A stretch of 64,000 nt of DNA from an uncultured Caulobacterales bacterium (GCA_938040095.1 CALHXF010000029.1:2646-66645); one strand, 5' to 3'; positions 32,291 through 43,075 are shown, numbered from the stretch's first letter. The notes: generated by a model not told the origin, from the letters alone. Translations and numbers: made by a program.

Positions 32291-34318
32291 CTACCAGCCA
32301 CAGCTCCGATCTTTGTTTTCCTCTTGGAGATAGGTCATCACAGGGTCGAAATATTCTAAGATTGCGGAGCCATCCATATCACGTGTACCTGTAAAGGCTT
32401 CCAAAGCGTCTGGCCAAGGCTTGCTTGAACCCATTTCCATCATCGCATTGAATTTCGCACCAACGTCTTTGTTACCATATACGGAACAGCGATGCAGTGG
32501 CCCTTCAAACCCAGCTTGTTCGCAAGCGGCTTTGTGGAATTGGAACTGTAGAATATGCGCCAAAAAATACCGCATGTAAGGCGTGTTGCCCGGAATATGG
32601 TATTTTGCGCCCGGGTCAAATGCCTCTGCTGGACGGTCTGACGGGGCCTTCAAACCTTGGTATTTCTCGCGAAGTTCCCACCACCCATCATTATATTCAG
32701 ATGGTGAATATGTTCCGTTAAAAACGTTCCAACGCCATTGATCAACCATCAGGCCGAACGGCAAGAACGCGACCTTATCCATCGCTTGGCGCATCAGTAG
32801 CGCGAGGTCGGCATCGTCACCTGGAATGTCAGCTGCATCCAATAGACCGATTTCGACAAGGTATTCTGGCGTGATGGAGAGGGCGATCATATCGCCAATC
32901 GCTTCATGGAAGCCATCATTTGCGCCATCTTTAAAGAAGACCGGCTGATCCTTATAGGCGCGCTGGTAGAAGTTGTGTCCCAACTCATGATGAACAGTCG
33001 AGAAGTCTTCGCCATTGACCTTGGTACACATTTTGATGCGAATATCTTCTTCGTTATCAAGGTTCCAAGCAGAGGCGTGACAGACAACGTCACGATCTTT
33101 TGGCTTTGTGATCAATGAGCGCTCCCAGAATGTCTTTGGTAATGGATCGAAGCCAAGCGATGTGAAGAACGTTTCGGCAGTTTCGACCATCTTCTTGGCG
33201 TCGTAGCCATTTTCTTCGAGCAGTTTGGTAACGTCTACGGCTTCGCCACCTTTTGCGGGTTTCACATCGTCATAGATATTACCCCAGCTTTGCCCCCACA
33301 TATTTCCGAGCAGATCAGCACGCAATGGGCCGTCCAAAGGTACGACTTCATCACCATACTTCGTGTTGAGTTTCGCGCGGACGTGGCAATGCAATTCGTC
33401 ATAGAGAGGTTTGACTTGTCCCCAAAGACGGTCCGCTTCTTGCGCAAACGCGTCGGCATCCATGTCGTAGCCGCCGCGCCAAAGATCACCCGCATCTTTA
33501 AATCCAAGTTCGTTGGAGCCTTCATTGATGATTTTCACCATCTTGGCGTAATCATCTTTCATTTGTGGCGAGACAGTCCGCCACCCTTCCCAAGTTGCTT
33601 GCAGCAGAGCAGGGTCGTCAGACTGCGCAATGATGTCGGAGGCTTGGCCAAGATGGATTGTCCCATCGGGCACTTCCTGATCCAAGGTCCCATCTTTTGT
33701 TAATGGACCATCATCGCCATCAGGGTCGACATCAAGAATTTCGATAATCCGCTTGTCTTTCACGTCGATTGGGAATTTGCCTGTCCCATAAGCACTATCT
33801 AAGCGGGTCATAATCCCCGCGAGATCCTTTGCCGCAGCCGCACTGTCAGGGGCGGGGAAATTCGATCCGCGCAACAGTCCGTCCATTTTGCGGCGCATAT
33901 CACCAGGTAGTGTCAGGCCGTTAAAACGTTTGGCTTGATTGGACAGGCGCGTGGACATCTTTGCGCCCGCTTCTGACATGCGGGCTTCGAGCGCATTTGT
34001 ATCTTGCGTGATAAAGTTCGCTTTTACCCAAGCCGTTTGCGCGGCGTATTTTCCAAACTCTTCAATCTCAATTTCAGTGGCTTCGAGAAACTCTTTCGCG
34101 CTTTGAACCGTTACGGCTTGGTTGTCTGGGCTTTGCTGCGAGGCTGCCATCAGCTCTGAACCGGGACGTGTTGCGGCTTCGGTGACCAAAGTTTCGACGG
34201 CGCTTTCTGTGCGCTCGCTTGGGGTTTCCGCAGGTGTATTCTCCGCACCTGAACACGCGGATAAAAACAATATTGCCGTCGTGAGCGCTGTTGCGCCTAA
34301 GAGTTTTGACTTGGTCAT
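32291..34318 (-). CDS. M2 family peptidyl-dipeptidase (ACE-like) lipoprotein
   Basis: HHELGH, GFHEAIGD, CHASAW, GNMWGQSW, FDPGAKYH; lipobox LSAC. Confidence 0.93.
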   Translation of the reverse strand: MTKSKLLGATALTTAILFLSACSGAENTPAETPSERTESAVETLVTEAATRPGSELMAASQQSPDNQAVTVQSAKEFLEATEIEIEEFGKYAAQTAWVKANFITQDTNALEARMSEAGAKMSTRLSNQAKRFNGLTLPGDMRRKMDGLLRGSNFPAPDSAAAAKDLAGIMTRLDSAYGTGKFPIDVKDKRIIEILDVDPDGDDGPLTKDGTLDQEVPDGTIHLGQASDIIAQSDDPALLQATWEGWRTVSPQMKDDYAKMVKIINEGSNELGFKDAGDLWRGGYDMDADAFAQEADRLWGQVKPLYDELHCHVRAKLNTKYGDEVVPLDGPLRADLLGNMWGQSWGNIYDDVKPAKGGEAVDVTKLLEENGYDAKKMVETAETFFTSLGFDPLPKTFWERSLITKPKDRDVVCHASAWNLDNEEDIRIKMCTKVNGEDFSTVHHELGHNFYQRAYKDQPVFFKDGANDGFHEAIGDMIALSITPEYLVEIGLLDAADIPGDDADLALLMRQAMDKVAFLPFGLMVDQWRWNVFNGTYSPSEYNDGWWELREKYQGLKAPSDRPAEAFDPGAKYHIPGNTPYMRYFLAHILQFQFHKAACEQAGFEGPLHRCSVYGNKDVGAKFNAMMEMGSSKPWPDALEAFTGTRDMDGSAILEYFDPVMTYLQEENKDRSCGW

Positions 34319-34514
34319 ATTATGTTCTCGCAATGTCTATGTCAGACGTCTGCAAAAATATTAGGTAAAACCCACTCGCAGCAATCTTAAAATGTAGTCT
34401 TTGTCGTAGACACAGGGCAGGAACGGTTCAACACTTCACCTGAAAAACTCTCACGCTCGCGGTCTGATTCCGTTGCTTTTTTGGCAAGGTGAGGCCGAAA
34501 GGACACAGCTACCC

Positions 34515-35510
34515 ATGTCTATCCCTGGTTTATTACTCGTCAATCTCGGTTCTCCTGATTCGCCGACAGCGAAAGATACGCGACGCTATCTGGCGGAGTT
34601 CCTGCATGACCATCGGGTTATCGATACATCCCGCTGGATTTGGTGCCCCATTTTACACGGGATCATATTGCGGACCCGCCCGCGCAAATCGGCGGCTTTA
34701 TATGAATCGATTTGGCATGAGCCTGAAGAATTTCCAGGTGATGAAGCCCCGTTGATTAGAATTACCCGCGCGCAAGCGGCTGGCGTTCAGGATCGATTGG
34801 GTGAGGGCGTTCACGTCGAAATCGCGATGCGTTATGGCAATCCGTCCATCGGCGCGAGTTTGGATGCGTTGAAAGCGAAGGGATGCACACGTATTGCTGT
34901 GTTCCCACTCTATCCGCAATTCGCAGGGGCTACGACGGCGTCGGTTTATGACGGTGTTGGTATGGCGTTAGAGAAGCGCATGGATGTTCCTGAGCTGCGG
35001 TTCCTTCGTCATTATTTTGATGACCCTCGTTATATTGCGGCTTTGGCTGGCAGCGTCGATCAGCATCTTTCTGGTTTGGATTGGACGCCCGATGTCATCA
35101 TGACGTCTTATCATGGGCTGCCACAGAGTTATGTCGACAAAGGCGACCCCTATCAGGGCGAATGTTTGGAAACGACGGAATTACTACGTCAACATATGGG
35201 TAAGACTGAAACTGAGCTATACGCGACATTCCAATCTCGCTTTGGACCGAAAGCCTGGTTGCAGCCTTATACGGATAAGACGCTCGAGGCCCTACCCGCA
35301 ACGGGTGTGAAAAAAGTCGCCGTGATGATGCCTGGGTTTTCTGCTGATTGCTTGGAAACATTGGAAGAGATCGCGGAGGAGGCGAAAGAAAGCTTCATGG
35401 AACATGGCGGCACACATTTTACCGCCATTCCGTGTTTGAATGCAGATGAGGCGCACCTCGATTTGCTTGCAGACTTGGCAAAGGAACGCTTGTTAAGCGG
35501 CTGGCTTTAA
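34515..35510 (+). CDS. hemH: Ferrochelatase
   Basis: LLVNLGSP, MRYGNP, PLYPQ, SYHGLP, FQSRFG, DCLETLEE. Confidence 0.96.
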   Translation: MSIPGLLLVNLGSPDSPTAKDTRRYLAEFLHDHRVIDTSRWIWCPILHGIILRTRPRKSAALYESIWHEPEEFPGDEAPLIRITRAQAAGVQDRLGEGVHVEIAMRYGNPSIGASLDALKAKGCTRIAVFPLYPQFAGATTASVYDGVGMALEKRMDVPELRFLRHYFDDPRYIAALAGSVDQHLSGLDWTPDVIMTSYHGLPQSYVDKGDPYQGECLETTELLRQHMGKTETELYATFQSRFGPKAWLQPYTDKTLEALPATGVKKVAVMMPGFSADCLETLEEIAEEAKESFMEHGGTHFTAIPCLNADEAHLDLLADLAKERLLSGWL

Positions 35511-36137
35511 ACGCTGAAATATATCTTCGATGGTTAGCGTCGTGTCCAGTATGACGTCCGACCCAATTGTCGTGTCTGCAAGGTTGTCGTAGGATTTCGA
35601 GCGGGACGCGAGTAGTTTGGGGTAGCTCTCTAAAATAGCTTCATCTTGGCTTTGGCCGCTCTCACATTGATAGTGACCATTCCAAATCAAGGGTTTTGGT
35701 TGCTTAAAATATTGGACTTTCAAGCGTTCTATTGCGTCTGGACTCGCTGAAATATACACGACAAACCAATGGTTTGTGAGCAATTTCTGAACGTCTTTAT
35801 CAGTGTAAATGACGCTGCCTGTTGTGTCCAAGACAGCATTGCCCAGATTATAGTCTAAGGCCTGCCGTGTGGCCTCAGTCTCCAGCGCGATTGAGCGCTT
35901 TTCACGTTCGCCGTAACCTTCCGAGTAAGGTTGGCCTTGCCAAGCTGCAAAGTCTTCCATGCTACCTTGACCGAGTTGCTCACGAATCAATGCGTCAACT
36001 TCTATCAGTTTGAAATCAAACCTCGTGGACAGCCGCATACCCGTGTAGCTTTTGCCAATGTTGGACATGCCAACCAGCGCAATTTTTAGAGTATTCTCTG
36101 CGTAACGCTGTTCAAACTCACTGCGGGTTAACTTCAT
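35493..36137 (-). CDS. Uncharacterised P-loop kinase (shikimate/NMP kinase-like fold)
   Basis: Walker A GMSNIGKS, VLDTTGSVIY, lid R..Y; TGATG overlap with thrC. Confidence 0.75.
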   Translation of the reverse strand: MKLTRSEFEQRYAENTLKIALVGMSNIGKSYTGMRLSTRFDFKLIEVDALIREQLGQGSMEDFAAWQGQPYSEGYGEREKRSIALETEATRQALDYNLGNAVLDTTGSVIYTDKDVQKLLTNHWFVVYISASPDAIERLKVQYFKQPKPLIWNGHYQCESGQSQDEAILESYPKLLASRSKSYDNLADTTIGSDVILDTTLTIEDIFQRLKPAA

Positions 36138-37489
36138 CAGGCGTGGGTTTCGAGATAATCCGACAACGCATCCAATGTCGGTTCCATCACATGCATACGC
36201 TTTTTCTTTCTCATCGCTTTTGCAAGAGGTTCGGGCAAAGGTATATCGGTGTGAAGGATACGCTCGACGCTATCTGCAAATTTTGACGGATGAGCCGTCC
36301 CAACTGTAATACGTGTAAAGGGCTCGGCGATATCTGCCGCAAATTTCTCCATCGCGAGATGGCCAACAGCCGTATGCGGACACATGATATATCCAGTTTC
36401 CGTATGAATTTTGCGAATATGTCGTTCCGTTTCTTCGTCACGAAAAGACGCGCCCCAGCAGACTTTCTTCACGGCGTCATAGTCGTCATCATGCAGCGCC
36501 AAAATACGAGGAAAGTTATTTGGTCGCCCAATATCCATTGCATTCGACAGTGTCGGAACGCTTGGGCGCGGCGTGTAAGTCCCCGTGTTGAGGTAGTCGA
36601 CGAAAGGGTCATTCGTATTGTTGCCGATTACAAATCGGTCAATCGGTGCGCCCATCTGTTTCGCGATCAGGCCACCCGTAAGGTTGCCGAGGTTTCCCGA
36701 CGGGATAGAATACACAAGTGGGCGGTGAGGATAGGCGGCCTTGGCCTGAATAGATGTCCAAAAATAGTAAAAGCTCTGCGGAATGACACGCCCGACATTG
36801 ATAGAGTTGGCACTCATTAGATCATGTTTTTCAGTTAAACCACTGTTTCCAAATGCTTGTTTCACAAGCTGCTGGCAATCATCAAACGTTCCGTCAACGG
36901 CAATCGCTTTTACATTAGAGTTCGCGGTTCCCATTGTTGTCAGCTGTTGTTCTTGTACTTTACTCACGCCGCCCTTTGGGAAGAGGATAAAGACCTTGAT
37001 GCCATCTTGATTCAAAAATGCATCACCAATGGCCCCGCCTGTATCGCCTGACGTCGCAACCAATATTGTGCGTCGCTGCTCTGTTTTGCCCATTATGTGG
37101 CTGGCAGCACGCCCCATGAAACGCGCAGCAAAGTCTTTAAAGGCCAGTGTCGGTCCGTGAAAAAGTTCAAGGACGAAGTCTTCTGCATCAGTTGGTAACG
37201 CGGGGTCTAAATGCTCACCGGAAAGCGTTTCCATCGGGACGGGGAAGTCATAGGCGTCACGACATATGTTCTTCAAATCTGACGTGGTAAATTCGTCACC
37301 TGTGAAATGCTGAGAGAGCTCCGCGGCGCAATCGGCGAAAGACATCGCGCCCAAACGCGCGGTGCCCTTAGACGAATATGTTGGAATCTTATCAGGCATC
37401 CACAACCCACCGCCCGGTGCGAGGCTCGCGAGAAGTGCGTCTGCAAAACCAGCTTTGACCGCGGAATCTTTATGTGAGTGATATTTCAT
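36137..37489 (-). CDS. thrC: Threonine synthase
   Basis: ELFHGPTLAFKDF (PLP Lys), ATSGDTG, SANSIN, PSGNLGN, TAHPSKF. Confidence 0.96.
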   Translation of the reverse strand: MKYHSHKDSAVKAGFADALLASLAPGGGLWMPDKIPTYSSKGTARLGAMSFADCAAELSQHFTGDEFTTSDLKNICRDAYDFPVPMETLSGEHLDPALPTDAEDFVLELFHGPTLAFKDFAARFMGRAASHIMGKTEQRRTILVATSGDTGGAIGDAFLNQDGIKVFILFPKGGVSKVQEQQLTTMGTANSNVKAIAVDGTFDDCQQLVKQAFGNSGLTEKHDLMSANSINVGRVIPQSFYYFWTSIQAKAAYPHRPLVYSIPSGNLGNLTGGLIAKQMGAPIDRFVIGNNTNDPFVDYLNTGTYTPRPSVPTLSNAMDIGRPNNFPRILALHDDDYDAVKKVCWGASFRDEETERHIRKIHTETGYIMCPHTAVGHLAMEKFAADIAEPFTRITVGTAHPSKFADSVERILHTDIPLPEPLAKAMRKKKRMHVMEPTLDALSDYLETHA

Positions 37490-37528
37490 GCGCGTTCACA
37501 TAGCGTAGATCGCGCATTGCGCAAGTTT

Positions 37529-38140
37529 TTACCGTGATCTGACCGCATGAGCGAGGATATTTACCATCGTCGCATGCGCCGCCACATCCCCGATATTCCT
37601 AACGCTATGGGGGCGATCCGCACGATAGCGGAGTGTCTCCCCTGCAGACGCAGACCATGTTTCACCCTCAACGGTCACCTCTAAGCGACCCGTCAGGACC
37701 GTTAGGTTCTCAATGGAACCTGCGGGATGGGGAGAGCTTTCTAGAACACCGTTCGGTTCCGCGCGGAAGTCATACCATTGTACAAATTCAACTGTGTCCA
37801 ATGAGCCAATGATTCGTAATTCACACAGACCATCTTGTGATTGCAGCAGAGGCGTGTCTTGAATTTTTGAGTGCTGAACGAGGGCTGTTTCATTTGGCGC
37901 ACCCGACACCATCGCCTCAACGCTTGTCCCCAAAGCCTGTGATAAGCGTGAGAGGGTCGCCAAGGTCGGATTGGATTCATTCTTTTCGATTTGCGAAATC
38001 ATGGACTTAGCGACCCCAGACAATTCGGAAAGATTGCCTAGTGACAACTTATCCGCCGTGCGAAGACGCAATATTGTTTGACCCAACTTTTCAGAAAGCG
38101 CTTCGGTTTGAGGGCAAGGGGTGCGTTTCTGACGGGCCAT
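37529..38140 (-). CDS. XRE-family HTH plus cupin transcriptional regulator (SutR/PuuR-like)
   Basis: LSELSGVAKSMISQIEKNESNPTL HTH; cupin H...E...G.L and D.PH motifs; divergent from cysG. Confidence 0.9.
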   Translation of the reverse strand: MARQKRTPCPQTEALSEKLGQTILRLRTADKLSLGNLSELSGVAKSMISQIEKNESNPTLATLSRLSQALGTSVEAMVSGAPNETALVQHSKIQDTPLLQSQDGLCELRIIGSLDTVEFVQWYDFRAEPNGVLESSPHPAGSIENLTVLTGRLEVTVEGETWSASAGETLRYRADRPHSVRNIGDVAAHATMVNILAHAVRSR

Positions 38141-38173
38141 AAAATTTTCGTGTTGTGGTAGATTTCTATTCGT

Positions 38174-38213
38174 GCGTTCTTTATATAGAACGCTAATGTT
38201 CAATCAAGTGAAC
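38174..38213. promoter_or_regulatory. Twin GTTC-N8-GAAC palindromes, putative operators of the XRE-cupin regulator
   Basis: GCGTTC-TTTATATA-GAACGC (core 38176-38191) and GTTC-AATCAAGT-GAAC (38198-38213), 22 bp apart, in the 102-bp divergent spacer. Confidence 0.7.
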
Positions 38214-38242
38214 GATTTATATTTAAAAACCCTGAGAGTCGC

Positions 38243-39619
38243 ATGCGATATTTACCAATACATTTTGATACGCGTGATGCCAAGATACTTGTCGTTGGCG
38301 GCGGACCCGCTGCGGAAGCCAAATTGCGTACTTTATTAAAGACCGATGCAAATATCGTTGTCGTGGATACTGACATAGGACCTGAAGTGGCCCGATGGGC
38401 CACCCAAGGTAAATTGGTTTGGGAACAACGAGATTTCGATACTTCGGACTTAGACGGGGCGTCACTGGTCTACGCGGCCACAGAAAATGACGATGTAAAT
38501 GCCGTCATCGCCGAGGCGGCTGCGGCGCGTCAAATTCCTGTCAACGCGGCGGATCAAAGAGACGCCTGTCGGTTCATTACACCTGCGCTCGTTGATCGTA
38601 CGCCTGTCATTGTCTCTATTGGAACCGAAGGCACCAGTCCTGCATTGGCGCGGGCGTTAAAGGCAGATTTGGAAATGCGCCTACCACCAGAGACCGGCGC
38701 ATTCGCGTTAAAAACGAAAACCCTCCGAGATCATGTGAAAGGGTTGATGCCTGACCTGGCGGATCGGCAGAGGTTTTGGGCCAAAATTTTAGGCGGCAAA
38801 GACCTCAGCGCCCAACTTCGCGTATCTCCTGAGACACTCGAAAAGCAAGTCGAATTGAATTTGGCTGGAGAAGATGAAACGGCTGGAAAGGTTCTGCTCG
38901 TAGGTGCTGGTCCAGGTAATCCAGATATGCTGACCACGGCCGCCCGCCGCGCGCTGCATGCGGCTGACGTGATTGTCTATGATCGACTGGTAAGTGATGG
39001 CGTCCTGGAGCTTGGACGCCGCGAGGCTGAATATATCTATGTCGGTAAAACACCGGGAGAGCCGTCTATAGGGCAACCCGCTATTAATGAAATTCTCGTT
39101 GAAAAAGCGTTGGAAGGCCTATCGGTTGTACGTTTGAAATCGGGTGACCCGCTTATCTTCGGGCGTGCCGACGAAGAAATTGACGCGCTCTCAGCTCACA
39201 ATATCCCCGTTGAGATCATTCCCGGTATCACATCTGCTGCCGCAGCCGCAGCCGCAATAAATTCTTCACTTACAACCCGTGGGACAAATCGAGCCATTTC
39301 CTTTCTGACGGGCCACGACGCCAAAGGCTTTGCGGAACAAGATTGGGCTTCATTGGCCCGACCAAATGGACGAGCCGCTGTTTACATGGGGGTAGGCGCG
39401 TCACGCTTCATCCAAGGACGACTGATGTTGCACGGTGCAGAACCAGACAGACCCGTGACCGTTGTAGAAAACGCGTCCCGCTCAAATCAAATTATTACTT
39501 ACACGACGTTACGTAACCTCCCTGACGACATCGCGACGGCCGGTATAAAAGGACCCGCAATTTTGTTGATTGGCTATGCGGAACGGGAAACATTTTCGGA
39601 AAAGAGGCTGGCGGTATGA
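38243..39619 (+). CDS. cysG: Siroheme synthase
   Basis: N-terminal VVGGG dehydrogenase/chelatase domain; LVGAGPG, RLKSGDP.IFGR, PGIT methyltransferase domain. Confidence 0.95.
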   Translation: MRYLPIHFDTRDAKILVVGGGPAAEAKLRTLLKTDANIVVVDTDIGPEVARWATQGKLVWEQRDFDTSDLDGASLVYAATENDDVNAVIAEAAAARQIPVNAADQRDACRFITPALVDRTPVIVSIGTEGTSPALARALKADLEMRLPPETGAFALKTKTLRDHVKGLMPDLADRQRFWAKILGGKDLSAQLRVSPETLEKQVELNLAGEDETAGKVLLVGAGPGNPDMLTTAARRALHAADVIVYDRLVSDGVLELGRREAEYIYVGKTPGEPSIGQPAINEILVEKALEGLSVVRLKSGDPLIFGRADEEIDALSAHNIPVEIIPGITSAAAAAAAINSSLTTRGTNRAISFLTGHDAKGFAEQDWASLARPNGRAAVYMGVGASRFIQGRLMLHGAEPDRPVTVVENASRSNQIITYTTLRNLPDDIATAGIKGPAILLIGYAERETFSEKRLAV

Positions 39620-39927
39620 GCACGCTCAAACATAAGGGCAAAGGCCCTCAATCCATGACCGCAAATGAATTGCGGGATGGATTTAGTGTCTGGTTAGATG
39701 AAAATCTGGATTGGACGCGGGATTTCACGAAAGCGCTTCGAACCGAGGATACAGACTTGATCGACCGTATGCATTTACGGGCTGAAACGGACGAAAAAGC
39801 GAATCTTGTCGTCGGAATTTACTTTATTGATATTGAACCTGAGACAGGCCTTCCAGCGCGTTACCGTGAAAAATTCCGCGTGAATGGCCCATCCTACGAC
39901 ACAGCTGATGTGCTGGAGATTTCCTAA
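39616..39927 (+). CDS. DUF2849-like small protein
   Basis: TANELRDG..VW, VVGIY, RE.FR..GPS; usual position before cysI. Confidence 0.82.
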   Translation: MSTLKHKGKGPQSMTANELRDGFSVWLDENLDWTRDFTKALRTEDTDLIDRMHLRAETDEKANLVVGIYFIDIEPETGLPARYREKFRVNGPSYDTADVLEIS

Positions 39928-41576
39928 TGTATAGATATGACGAATTTGACGCGCAACTTGTTGCGGACCGCACTCGCCAGTTTAGAGGGCAGGTCGAACG
40001 CCGTTTAGCCGGGCGGTTGAGCGAAGCCGAATTCCGCCCTCTGCGCTTGATGAATGGTCTCTATTTGCAGTTACACGCTTATATGCTCCGCGTTGCTGTG
40101 CCTTACGGGACGCTAAACAGCGAGCAATTCCGTATGCTCGCGCACTTGGCCGAGAAATATGATCGCGGATACGGACATGTGACGACGCGTCAGAACATGC
40201 AGTTTAACTGGCCGAAATTACCGGATGTGCCTGACATGCTAGATGATCTCGCGAGCGTTCAAATGCACGCAATTCAGACGTCTGGAAATTGCATTCGTAA
40301 TGTGACCTGTGACCCTTACGCAGGAGCAACCGCCGAAGAAGTCGAAGACCCGCGCCCTATGGCCGAGCTCATTCGTCAGTGGTCAACACTGCATCCAGAA
40401 TTCACATTCCTGCCCCGTAAGTTCAAGATTGCTGTCACAGCCGCCGAGAAAGATCGCGCCCTTATCAAAGCGCATGACATTGGCATTCAGATCATTCGAA
40501 ATGCTGCAGGAGATATTGGCTATAAAATCTATGTCGGAGGCGGCCTCGGACGCACACCTATCATCGGGCAAGTTTTGCGCGAATTTCTCCCAAAGGGTGA
40601 GTTACTCGCCTATCTGACAGCCGCACTGCGCGTTTATAACCGTTATGGACGTCGTGATAATAAGTACAAAGCGCGCATAAAAATACTGGTGCAAGAGACT
40701 GGAATTGAAACCTTTACTGAGCAAGTTGAGGCTGAATACGCCACGATCGACATTAGCGATATTTCGGTATCTGATGCCGAACGCGAACGGATTGCATCCT
40801 ATTTCGCGGCGCCTGATTTCGAGACGTTAGAGAACGACCCGAAGGCCTTTACGGACGCGCTCCAGGTAAATAATGCCTTCTCCCTCTGGGCCAATAATAA
40901 TGTCGCGGCGCATAAAGCCGCTGGCTACGCGATAGTGAACATATCACTGAAGCCTAAAGAGCTCGCCCCGGGTGATATAACGGCCGCGCAGATGCGCGAT
41001 GTATCTGATATGGCGGACACCTATTCCTTTGGGGAATTACGGTCGACGCATCAGCAGAACCTCGTTCTGCCACATGTCAAACAATCCGACTTACTTGCGC
41101 TCTTTACAGAGCTTCAGGCGGCAGGTTTAGCAGCGGATAATATCAACCTGATCACAGACATCATCTGCTGTCCCGGTATGGACTTCTGCGCGCTGGCAAC
41201 GGCACGTTCAATCCCAATCAGTCAGGCCATAGCCGAGCGTTTCGCTGATCCTGAGCGCCAACGCACGATCGGTGAAATGCAGATTAAGATTTCTGGCTGT
41301 ATCAATGCCTGTGGCCATCATCATGTTGGGCATATCGGCATCCTTGGTTTGGAAAAAGCTGGCGTGGAATTCTACCAAATCAAACTTGGCGGTGACGCGT
41401 CTGAACATGCGGAAATCGGCAAGGTGACAGGTCCCGGGTTCTCGCAAGAAGAACTCATCGACGGGATCGAAAACATGGTCGATCTCTATCTGAAACAACG
41501 CGAGGCGGGCGAACGCTTCCTCGACACATACCGACGTATCGGCATCGCGCCGTTCAAAGAGGTGCTTTATGCCTAG
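39927..41576 (+). CDS. cysI: Sulfite reductase hemoprotein (nitrite/sulfite reductase family)
   Basis: MYRYDEFD, RLMNGLYLQLHAYMLR, LPRKFK, CPGMDFC and SGCINAC siroheme/4Fe-4S ligands. Confidence 0.93.
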   Translation: MYRYDEFDAQLVADRTRQFRGQVERRLAGRLSEAEFRPLRLMNGLYLQLHAYMLRVAVPYGTLNSEQFRMLAHLAEKYDRGYGHVTTRQNMQFNWPKLPDVPDMLDDLASVQMHAIQTSGNCIRNVTCDPYAGATAEEVEDPRPMAELIRQWSTLHPEFTFLPRKFKIAVTAAEKDRALIKAHDIGIQIIRNAAGDIGYKIYVGGGLGRTPIIGQVLREFLPKGELLAYLTAALRVYNRYGRRDNKYKARIKILVQETGIETFTEQVEAEYATIDISDISVSDAERERIASYFAAPDFETLENDPKAFTDALQVNNAFSLWANNNVAAHKAAGYAIVNISLKPKELAPGDITAAQMRDVSDMADTYSFGELRSTHQQNLVLPHVKQSDLLALFTELQAAGLAADNINLITDIICCPGMDFCALATARSIPISQAIAERFADPERQRTIGEMQIKISGCINACGHHHVGHIGILGLEKAGVEFYQIKLGGDASEHAEIGKVTGPGFSQEELIDGIENMVDLYLKQREAGERFLDTYRRIGIAPFKEVLYA

Positions 41577-42753
41577 TCATACACTCATCCAAGACGGCCG
41601 CGCCCGCGACGCATCCCGATTTGCAACATCTGTCGACGTGAGCGATATCTCTGGAAATGAGCCCATAGAGGTTCTTCATATCCCGAATGATGCAGATTTG
41701 GATGCGCTTGCACCTACATTAGGTCGAATTGAAACGATCCTGATTGATTTCCCAGCCTATACCGACGGGCGCGGGTTTTCTCTCGCGCGTCAACTTCGCC
41801 GTAGATATAACTATGAAGGCCTACTCATCGCCGACGGTCCATTGATCCCAGACCAACATGCCTTTGCATTACAGTGTGGTTTTGACGCTGTGCGTTTGGA
41901 TGATGAGACCCTGAAACGTCACACAATTGAGGACTGGCATAGCGCCTTGGACGATTTCGATATGACCTATCAACGCGGCTATGCCGTAAAAGCTGGCCCT
42001 GCGACCTCGGTATTTGATGCCCGCATGACAACACTAGATAGCCGAAAGGCAGGTGACCCTTTTTTCGGCCACTCGGCGGAGTTGACGCTACGTAAGGCCA
42101 TTACAAAATTCAAAGGTGATATCGTGCTGGCCACATCCATGGGTGTGGATTCAGCCGTACTGCTACATATGGTGTCACGGATTGATCCGAGCCTTCCGGT
42201 GATCTTCCTTGATACAGGTAAACATTTTCGAGAAACCTTGGCTTACCGCGATGAACTCGTCAGTCGTTTTGGCTTGACCAATTTTCAGAATATCACGCCT
42301 GATCAGGCGGCTATTTTAGCCGAAGACCCAGATGGGACGTTGAACCAAAGCGAACCTGACTCCTGCTGCGATTTGCGCAAGGTCAGGCCGTTGGACGGCG
42401 TCATCAATGGCTATGGTGCGCGCATCACAGGGCGGAAGCGGTACCAAACCCCAGAGCGTGCCGAGATGTCGATTTTGGAAGAAACCTCCCCGCAGGCCAA
42501 GGTCAATCCATTGGCCTATTGGACTGCGAAAGACGTTACCGCCTATATGCGCCAACACGACCTACCGCCGCATCCACTGCTCGCGATTGGATATCTTTCA
42601 ATTGGGTGTCAGCCTTGCACAACCCGCGTATCAGCAGGCGAAGACCCGCGCGCTGGTCGGTGGAGAAATAGCGATAAGACGGAGTGCGGTATTCACATGG
42701 TCGATGGGAAATGGGTGAGCGTTGAGACGAAGGCTACGTTTGAGGCTTTTTAA
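41569..42753 (+). CDS. cysH: DUF934 fused to APS/PAPS reductase CysH
   Basis: N-terminal FP..TDGRGFSLARQLR...DQ...CGFD (DUF934); C-terminal FLDTG, CC..RKV.PL, SIGC.PCT, R.GRW, ECGIH. Confidence 0.9.
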   Translation: MPSHTLIQDGRARDASRFATSVDVSDISGNEPIEVLHIPNDADLDALAPTLGRIETILIDFPAYTDGRGFSLARQLRRRYNYEGLLIADGPLIPDQHAFALQCGFDAVRLDDETLKRHTIEDWHSALDDFDMTYQRGYAVKAGPATSVFDARMTTLDSRKAGDPFFGHSAELTLRKAITKFKGDIVLATSMGVDSAVLLHMVSRIDPSLPVIFLDTGKHFRETLAYRDELVSRFGLTNFQNITPDQAAILAEDPDGTLNQSEPDSCCDLRKVRPLDGVINGYGARITGRKRYQTPERAEMSILEETSPQAKVNPLAYWTAKDVTAYMRQHDLPPHPLLAIGYLSIGCQPCTTRVSAGEDPRAGRWRNSDKTECGIHMVDGKWVSVETKATFEAF

Positions 42754-42784: not shown

Positions 42785-43075
42785 AAAAAAAGGTTTTGGT
42801 GTCATAAAGATGGGAGGCCTTGGTACCACGTAGATAACAGGACTTGTGGGGCGTTTTATTACACATTTGTTTTCGTTCCAGTCGGGACGTTCGGATTGTT
42901 ATTTATATGGTCTTGGTTTGGAGACCTTAGTTTTTTGGATGGCATTCCAGGAAAAGTATTCGTTGCGATCCTATTCGTTCTGATGGGCTGGGGAGCATTG
43001 CTAGGTTACAGATATCCAAAACCAGCTTTGGCTTTCAGCAAGGTTTTGCGTTATTTCCCTTCCGGGGGGATCTAG
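42785..43075 (+). pseudogene. Start-less 96-codon frame encoding two hydrophobic helices, behind an A9 tract
   Basis: Reads KKRFWCHKDGRPWY...FYYTFVFVPVGTFGLLFIWSWF...VFVAILFVLMGWGALLGYRYP...GGI*; fills the cysH-hisIE gap; TAA at 42782-42784 closes the frame upstream. Confidence 0.4.

Follow-up and report, generated by a model that had tools for sequence, protein, structure and literature searches.

The 64,000-nucleotide stretch of DNA analyzed here (the window), from an uncultured Caulobacterales bacterium, carries a regulator gene that lies back to back with a sulfite-reduction operon. The regulator, a 203-amino acid SutR-like protein of the XRE-HTH (HTH_3) and Cupin_2 type—identified by Pfam, BLASTP, and AlphaFold—is encoded on the minus strand (37529-38140). 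On the plus strand, the operon begins with cysG for siroheme synthase (38243-39619; NF007922 CysG, 504.8 bits, above cut-off), followed by a gene for a DUF2849 protein that overlaps cysG by 4 bp (39616-39927; PF11011), a cysI-type gene for a sulfite reductase hemoprotein with NIR_SIR and NIR_SIR_ferr domains (39927-41576), and, in last position, a gene for a DUF934::CysH fusion (APS/PAPS reductase; 41569-42753; PF06073 and PF01507; NF002537, 259 bits). A terminator-like hairpin follows at 42909-42926. The divergent ATG codons at 38140 (minus strand) and 38243 enclose a spacer of 102 bp (38141-38242). On its other side, the regulator gene, whose stop codon occupies 37529-37531, is separated by 39 bp from the ATG (37489) of the co-directional thrC gene for threonine synthase (36137-37489, minus strand; TIGR00260, 252 bits, above cut-off), to which a gene for a SKI-like (shikimate-kinase-like P-loop) kinase (35493-36137, minus strand) is translationally coupled. 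The ferrochelatase gene hemH (34473-35510) is convergent with the kinase gene, and a 680-amino acid Peptidase_M2 protein of the angiotensin-converting-enzyme family (E 4e-211) is encoded at 32291-34333 on the minus strand. An XRE-cupin regulator facing the sulfate-assimilation operon, co-directional with thrC and 39 bp upstream of it, had been proposed in a preliminary description of this DNA, and the domain assignments and coordinates agree with that arrangement.

The regulator protein

Pfam places the HTH_3 domain at residues 25-75 (PF01381, E 6e-11) and the Cupin_2 domain at residues 126-193 (PF07883, E 7.5e-12). The start of the protein was set at the ATG at 38140 because the N-termini of all orthologues read MARQKR from this codon; the sequence 5′ of it diverges. 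A TTG start at 38203, taken from the ORF list, was rejected as an artefact whose upstream extension lacks conservation. The AlphaFold model (pLDDT 90.6) features an N-terminal domain of four to five helices, and the recognition-helix region, SGVAKSMISQIEKNE, is invariant across 81 orthologues. In a 50-member family alignment, the cupin residues H138 and E144 show no variation, conservation of H178 and N182 is at least 90%, and the position of the canonical second histidine of cupin motif 1 is occupied by alanine. The His/Glu/His ligands that define metal-binding cupins are found in motifs 1 and 2 as a 2-His-1-Glu triad (H138, E144, H178), and the conservation of H138, E144, H178, and N182 points to a putative metal or ligand site.

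Database names for the protein are all generic, as exemplified by "XRE family transcriptional regulator". Its kinship with E. coli SutR (YdcN, b1434), an XRE-cupin protein mentioned in the preliminary description, is shown by a BLASTP alignment of residues 13-202 with residues 2-178 of SutR, which covers the full length at 32% identity (E 8e-28). Both proteins share the two-domain architecture (178 amino acids in SutR versus 203 here), and their recognition-helix regions are very similar. The contention that the system is not of the LysR/CysB type holds as well: Pfam reports HTH_3 and Cupin_2 only, with neither the HTH_1 nor the LysR_substrate domain that would mark a CysB or Cbl protein. The XRE-HTH/cupin architecture is likewise found in E. 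coli PuuR, a local autoregulated repressor of putrescine utilization with an effector-binding cupin, but pathway and operator differ, and membership in the PuuR equivalog was rejected at a score of 40.7 bits against a cut-off of 211 (NF007408). The best structural match is PDB 1y9q, an HTH_3-family regulator from Vibrio cholerae without an assigned regulon (sequence E 5e-14, Foldseek E 5e-17); further fold matches are 6b8w and HppE, which shares HTH and cupin domains and is an Fe(II)-dependent enzyme, not a regulator. TM-scores for 1y9q and HppE are 0.42-0.48, as the two domains are oriented differently.

A conserved palindrome in the spacer

The spacer contains two GTTC-N8-GAAC palindromes with centers 22 bp apart, as had been noted from the outset: Pal1 (38176-38191; GTTCTTTATATAGAAC), the candidate main operator, and Pal2 (38198-38213; GTTCAATCAAGTGAAC), a candidate lineage-specific auxiliary site. 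The arms of Pal1 extend to 7 bp (GCGTTCT/AGAACGC). The loose GTTC-N8-GAAC pattern occurs three times in the window versus 1.0 expected, a count reached by 6 of 100 shuffles, and 52 times in the 2.7-Mb genome versus approximately 41 expected, which makes it uninformative as a genome-wide probe for a regulon. The significance of the palindromes rests on the extended motif and on its conservation, not on the loose pattern.

Conservation was assessed in 104 orthologous regulator-cysG spacers, 25 of them taken from genomes of the genus and 79 from contigs of public genomes. Their regulators, which belong to Litorimonas, Algimonas, Hellea, Robiginitomaculum, and related genera, are 66-87% identical to the present one. 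Wherever a locus includes upstream sequence (104 in all), cysG points away from the regulator, and Pal1 is found in 104/104 spacers, almost always as the perfect 16-mer GTTCTATATATAGAAC, the clade consensus. Among the 81 unique spacers, Pal1 is the sole near-invariant block, with about 2 bits at 14 of its 16 positions and symmetric Y/R flanks; information content amounts to 0-1 bit elsewhere in the spacer and to nearly 0-0.5 bits beside Pal1. The claim of a readable, conserved palindromic operator in the spacer is therefore upheld for Pal1, whereas footprinting confines Pal2 to a single branch. Of the 104 loci, 22 have a GTTC-N8-GAAC site at +22 (perfect arms in 16 of the 81 unique spacers); every one of them belongs to the closest Litorimonas subclade, outside which only the CAAG of Pal2 is kept, at +28 to +31 from Pal1. 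Within the subclade, the linker and the downstream bases vary while Pal2 stays constant, and one variant (L075) has an altered center and retains both arms. These patterns argue that Pal2 is probably functional in the closest Litorimonas subclade, as a lineage-specific addition.

A reading of the palindrome as an RNA hairpin or RNA element was rejected. Arm variants (GTTCG..., GTTCGT...) occur without a compensating change on the opposite arm, an Rfam search of the spacer gave no match, and the predicted fold of the spacer RNA is only marginally better than that of shuffled sequences (z = -1.8). For these reasons, a role of Pal1 at the RNA level is unlikely.

Extent of the regulon

A symmetrized PWM built from the orthologous sites was run on the organism's own genome, which is 79% complete, so that further sites may be unseen. 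It returned two strong sites, one in the cysG/regulator spacer and one on another contig (C105). The strict motif GTTCNWTATAWNGAAC likewise has exactly two copies in this genome; it averages about two copies per genome and is found in one to three copies in 46 of 48 genus genomes, where a reversed control pattern gives one match in total. The second site (C105:10436-10472; L031 5937-5973) is located 88 bp upstream of a gene for a 265-amino acid protein with FAD_binding_6 and NAD_binding_1 domains, a bacterial-type ferredoxin-NADP reductase (fpr), which is divergent from the methylmalonyl-CoA mutase genes mutA/mutB. All 22 second-site loci inspected, from four genera, have it in front of the fpr orthologue, even where the other neighbor is not mutA. 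A weaker site, nnnC(T/G)ATATAnnGAAC, is positioned 21 bp nearer to fpr than the strong site and is conserved through the genus. The twin operators announced in the preliminary description have thus fared unevenly: Pal1 is universal and twin sites recur at fpr, but the intact arms of Pal2 are restricted to the 22 loci mentioned above. Twin, helically phased sites do belong to the system, but in another form than first assumed.

Other matches were discarded. In the own genome, the PWM match at C34:2437 is inside an ORF for a beta-eliminating lyase, and the one at C108:31592 is weak and lies beside an unrelated LysR/SnoaL pair. In Hellea-type genomes, GTTCAATATATTGAAC sites fall within a conserved ORF and represent coding coincidences. 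The sequence GTTCCATATATGGAAC, found in two same-genus genomes (L064:2349, L065:1169) in an IclR/KDPG-aldolase/PfkB spacer, belongs to a different system; a TTCC..GGAA repeat is adjacent to it, and it probably serves as operator in a sugar-acid regulon of the KdgR type.

Five loci from Robiginitomaculum provide evidence for a link between regulator and fpr that is independent of the motif, since in all of them the regulator gene is followed by fpr after 15 bp; a single operator is the usual number in these genomes. A scan of five complete genomes, allowing up to two mismatches, detected no recurrent sites besides those at cysG/regulator and fpr, and no operator-like site was present within approximately 1.5 kb of cysD or cysK/cysM, where the best matches (5-6 mismatches) equal background. 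A sulfur regulon that takes in cysD and cysK is not supported by these scans. A narrow predicted regulon composed of the cysG operon (siroheme synthase, sulfite reductase, and APS/PAPS reductase), fpr, and the regulator itself is solidly supported.

A further alternative, in line with the preliminary description, is a sulfur regulon that is broad, CysB-independent, and governed by twin phased operators, in which cysteine synthesis is coupled to the threonine/homoserine branch through co-transcription of the regulator with thrC and the kinase gene. Twin sites at 21-22 bp, here and at fpr, are in keeping with it, and so is the order regulator-thrC-kinase, which is seen in 85 of 105 loci. Moreover, no terminator was detected on the minus strand, the coding strand, in the 39-bp gap, so that transcripts from the regulator promoter may extend into thrC. 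The gap, however, contains a promoter-like element that thrC can call its own (CTTGCG-N16-CTATGT; 37498-37525, minus strand), ending 8 nt before the thrC ATG. Its core, CTTGC(G/C)-N16-(C/T)TA, persists in 25/25 genus loci while the remainder of the gap diverges, and comparable promoter-like elements precede unlinked thrC genes in two other genera. In each of five genomes, a single threonine synthase, that encoded by thrC, scores above the curated cut-off, which assigns thrC and the kinase gene to housekeeping threonine synthesis. In 20 of 104 loci, thrC does not adjoin the regulator; five of these are the Robiginitomaculum loci, all of which have fpr in its place. Together with the lack of sites near cysD or cysK/cysM, the lack of further recurrent sites, and the confinement of Pal2 to one subclade, these findings render the broad regulon highly improbable. 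The proposed tie to the threonine/homoserine branch is not sustained; thrC and the kinase gene appear to be neighbors, possibly reached by read-through, and are not supported as core members of the regulon.

The kinase merits attention in its own right. Five genomes of the family, among them four that are 99-100% complete, yielded no canonical ThrB, be it a GHMP-type or an APH-type homoserine kinase. The SKI-like kinase scores 34.6 bits against the model for the Desulfovibrio-type homoserine kinase (NF040667; cut-off 197). Since no canonical ThrB was found and the gene is coupled to thrC, its product is a strong candidate for a non-canonical homoserine kinase.

Co-occurrence of regulator and motif

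Among 151 genomes of the family, 53 possess both regulator and motif, 93 possess neither, and 5 are discordant. The single regulator-only genome has a site with one mismatch, and the four motif-only genomes comprise two incomplete genomes from regulator-bearing genera and two with variant sequences. In four patchy genera, the lists of regulator and motif match genome for genome. The cys-linked regulator group is present in 9 of 26 genera sampled in one family. cysI identities across the family sort into two classes, one of at least 69%, always accompanied by the regulator, and one of at most 62%, without the regulator; such a distant cysI without the regulator is present in 40 genomes of the family sample. 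cysI is absent altogether from many genomes of the same genera. The sulfate-reduction cassette and the regulator appear to have been gained and lost as a unit. Since regulator, operator, and cassette move together, the co-occurrence counts do not represent independent events, and co-occurrence alone fits both binding of the motif by the regulator and a motif that rides along with the cys cassette. A suggestive case is provided by the complete genome G044 (L155; C1:1937000-1941200), in which the regulator is frameshifted near residue 145 and Pal1 carries a GAAC to GTAC change, owing either to natural loss of the regulator with decay of its operator or to a sequencing or assembly error.

The question therefore arises whether Pal1 might be bound by another factor, or might merely be a bidirectional core promoter, with the XRE-cupin protein regulating, e.g., thrC and the kinase gene or an unlinked target. 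The center of Pal1, TATATATA, would make a good -10 element in both directions, and since a single cys-cassette lineage carries both regulator and motif, their association could be indirect. However, the invariant GTTC/GAAC arms and the Y/R flanks have no role in a core promoter and are typical of a site for a dimeric HTH protein. In addition, the palindrome recurs on a different contig, at fpr, a gene that in Robiginitomaculum is operonic with the regulator, and the locus has no second conserved candidate for a regulator. For local regulators of the XRE type, divergent and autoregulated pairs of transcription factor and target are the norm. Binding of Pal1 by a different factor, or by none, is thus very unlikely.

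Proposed mechanism

A conserved motif that is rare in the genome accompanies the regulator and marks two target regions. The regulator very probably acts via GTTCTATATATAGAAC on the cysG operon, on fpr, and on its own gene, and it is probably a dimeric, autoregulated local repressor. Alphaproteobacterial and Caulobacter promoters follow the consensus CTTGAC-N17-CTATAT or TTGACGS-N10-14-GCTANAWC, and the -35 and -10 assignments given here were read against this consensus. The AT center of Pal1 contains the -10-like element TATATA (38182-38187, plus strand), which is -10-like in both directions, and the putative -35-like element of the cysG promoter, TAGATT (38159-38164, plus strand), is located 17 bp upstream of it. 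Across the 81 unique spacers, a T.G..TT pattern at -17 to -11 from Pal1 is moderately conserved (0.9-1.1 bits), and we infer that it constitutes a -35-like element facing cysG at exactly 17 bp from the TATATA center. On the opposite side, Pal2 overlaps the element CTTGAT (38208-38203, minus strand), and the widely kept CAAG—the reverse complement of CTTG—is likely to be the -35-like element of the leftward regulator promoter. The palindrome center is the sole conserved -10-like sequence in either direction, with conserved flanking elements at -35 distances, and the sites at fpr similarly cover the -35-like and -10-like positions of a leftward promoter. These three features favor repression by promoter occlusion together with autoregulation.

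The opposite sign of regulation has to be weighed. With the same protein and the same operator, an activator or dual regulator could switch on the cys operon and fpr under sulfur scarcity. The -35-like element that faces cysG is a weak one (TAGATT/TGGATT), as is the case in activator-dependent promoters, and annotations of the homologue SutR list it as a dual regulator. Furthermore, a strict scan for the E. coli promoter consensus found no self-sufficient promoter in the spacer. An activator bound at Pal1 would nevertheless call for a -10-like element downstream of it, and none is conserved at the distances expected for class I or class II: beyond +38 from Pal1, information content drops to about 0-0.3 bits, and the only conserved TATA-like element is the palindrome center itself. 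The fpr sites, too, cover -35-like and -10-like positions. Activation is for these reasons considered unlikely.

Under the favored repressor reading, a dimer of the regulator on Pal1 would block access of RNA polymerase to the promoter of the cysG-DUF2849-cysI-DUF934::cysH operon, and the same occupancy would block the divergent promoter of the regulator itself. The second operator would bring fpr, the probable NADPH entry point for a CysJ-less sulfite reductase, under the same control. In the present genome and its closest relatives, Pal2 would probably add cooperative binding on the same face of the DNA. The 2-His-1-Glu triad of the cupin domain presumably senses a signal of sulfur status.

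The proposed role of Fpr draws on several observations. A search of five genomes of the family for cysJ gave no hit. Fitness data connect DUF2849 and DUF934 with a CysJ-less sulfite reductase (Price et al., bioRxiv 10.1101/072470); the module described there, DUF2849-CysI-DUF934, consists of the same genes as the one considered here, but that work names neither a regulator nor an NADPH-linked reductase, whereas in the present system fpr shares the motif of the operon. Taken together with the co-regulation of fpr implied by the motif, these points make Fpr a plausible NADPH entry point for CysJ-less sulfite reduction. A bolder, joint proposal—that the cupin contains a metal with direct coordination of a reduced form of sulfur (sulfide, sulfite, or cysteine) and that Fpr, with DUF2849 and DUF934, is the NADPH-linked donor that replaces CysJ—is speculative and, as a whole, rather doubtful.

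Comparison with known systems

SutR is described as an XRE-HTH/cupin regulator of sulfur utilization (Yamamoto et al. 2015, cited in PMC4797297 and PMC8464067), and its binding motif is reported as palindromic (PMC8464067). Despite their relatedness, several differences exist between SutR and the present regulator. SutR is annotated as a dual regulator with 17 SELEX sites, in contrast to the two operator regions found here. The neighbors of sutR are the transporter gene ydcO and rlhA, not cys genes, and orthology by context was rejected in view of the different neighbors and of the lack of a continuous series of cys-linked homologues. Among 17 alphaproteobacterial homologues (34-58% identity), neighbors are, e.g., EamA, DctP, and ThiD, and none is a cys gene. 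With these 17 class-level homologues and 2 order-level ones devoid of cys neighbors, the general equation of the SutR family with cys regulation likewise found no support. The ydcO-sutR spacer of E. coli K-12 (L168 8090-8140) harbors two palindromes of the CGTTATA(A/G)CG type approximately 31 bp apart, which may be autoregulatory sites of SutR. These repeats upstream of sutR differ from GTTC-N8-GAAC in sequence and in the spacing of their arms.

CysB, a LysR-type activator with N-acetylserine as inducer, governs a broad regulon including transport, cysDNC, and cysK. It also controls genes of assimilatory sulfate reduction but belongs to an unrelated protein family, and the regulon considered here differs in its scope (siroheme, APS and sulfite reduction, and fpr) and in its sign, which is likely repression. 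To our knowledge, regulators of assimilatory sulfate reduction are poorly known outside the CysB-bearing gammaproteobacteria and a few Gram-positives, and a search of the literature on XRE/cupin proteins in connection with sulfate assimilation found no paper describing the regulator or the motif. The assignment of the protein as a SutR-like local regulator of the XRE-cupin class, with an operator newly defined here and a predicted two-target regulon of reductive sulfur metabolism is solidly supported by the comparative data, and its logic is conventional.

Implications

The scope of the finding is limited, as the regulator group occurs in only a part of a single family and a local palindrome-binding repressor follows conventional logic. 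With a defined 16-bp operator, two target regions, and cultured hosts (Litorimonas, Hellea, and Algimonas), the system represents an experimentally ready case. The regulon also constitutes an independent argument for a plain ferredoxin-NADP reductase as the electron supply of the CysJ-less DUF2849-CysI-DUF934 sulfite reductase. If the joint proposal proved true, a metal-coordinating cupin would represent a new kind of direct sensor of sulfur status, and Fpr would be the missing electron donor in many bacteria with CysJ-less sulfite reductases. Finally, the apparent gain and loss of the cassette within genera implies that sulfur auxotrophy is frequent in the family, which is of relevance to marine bacteria.
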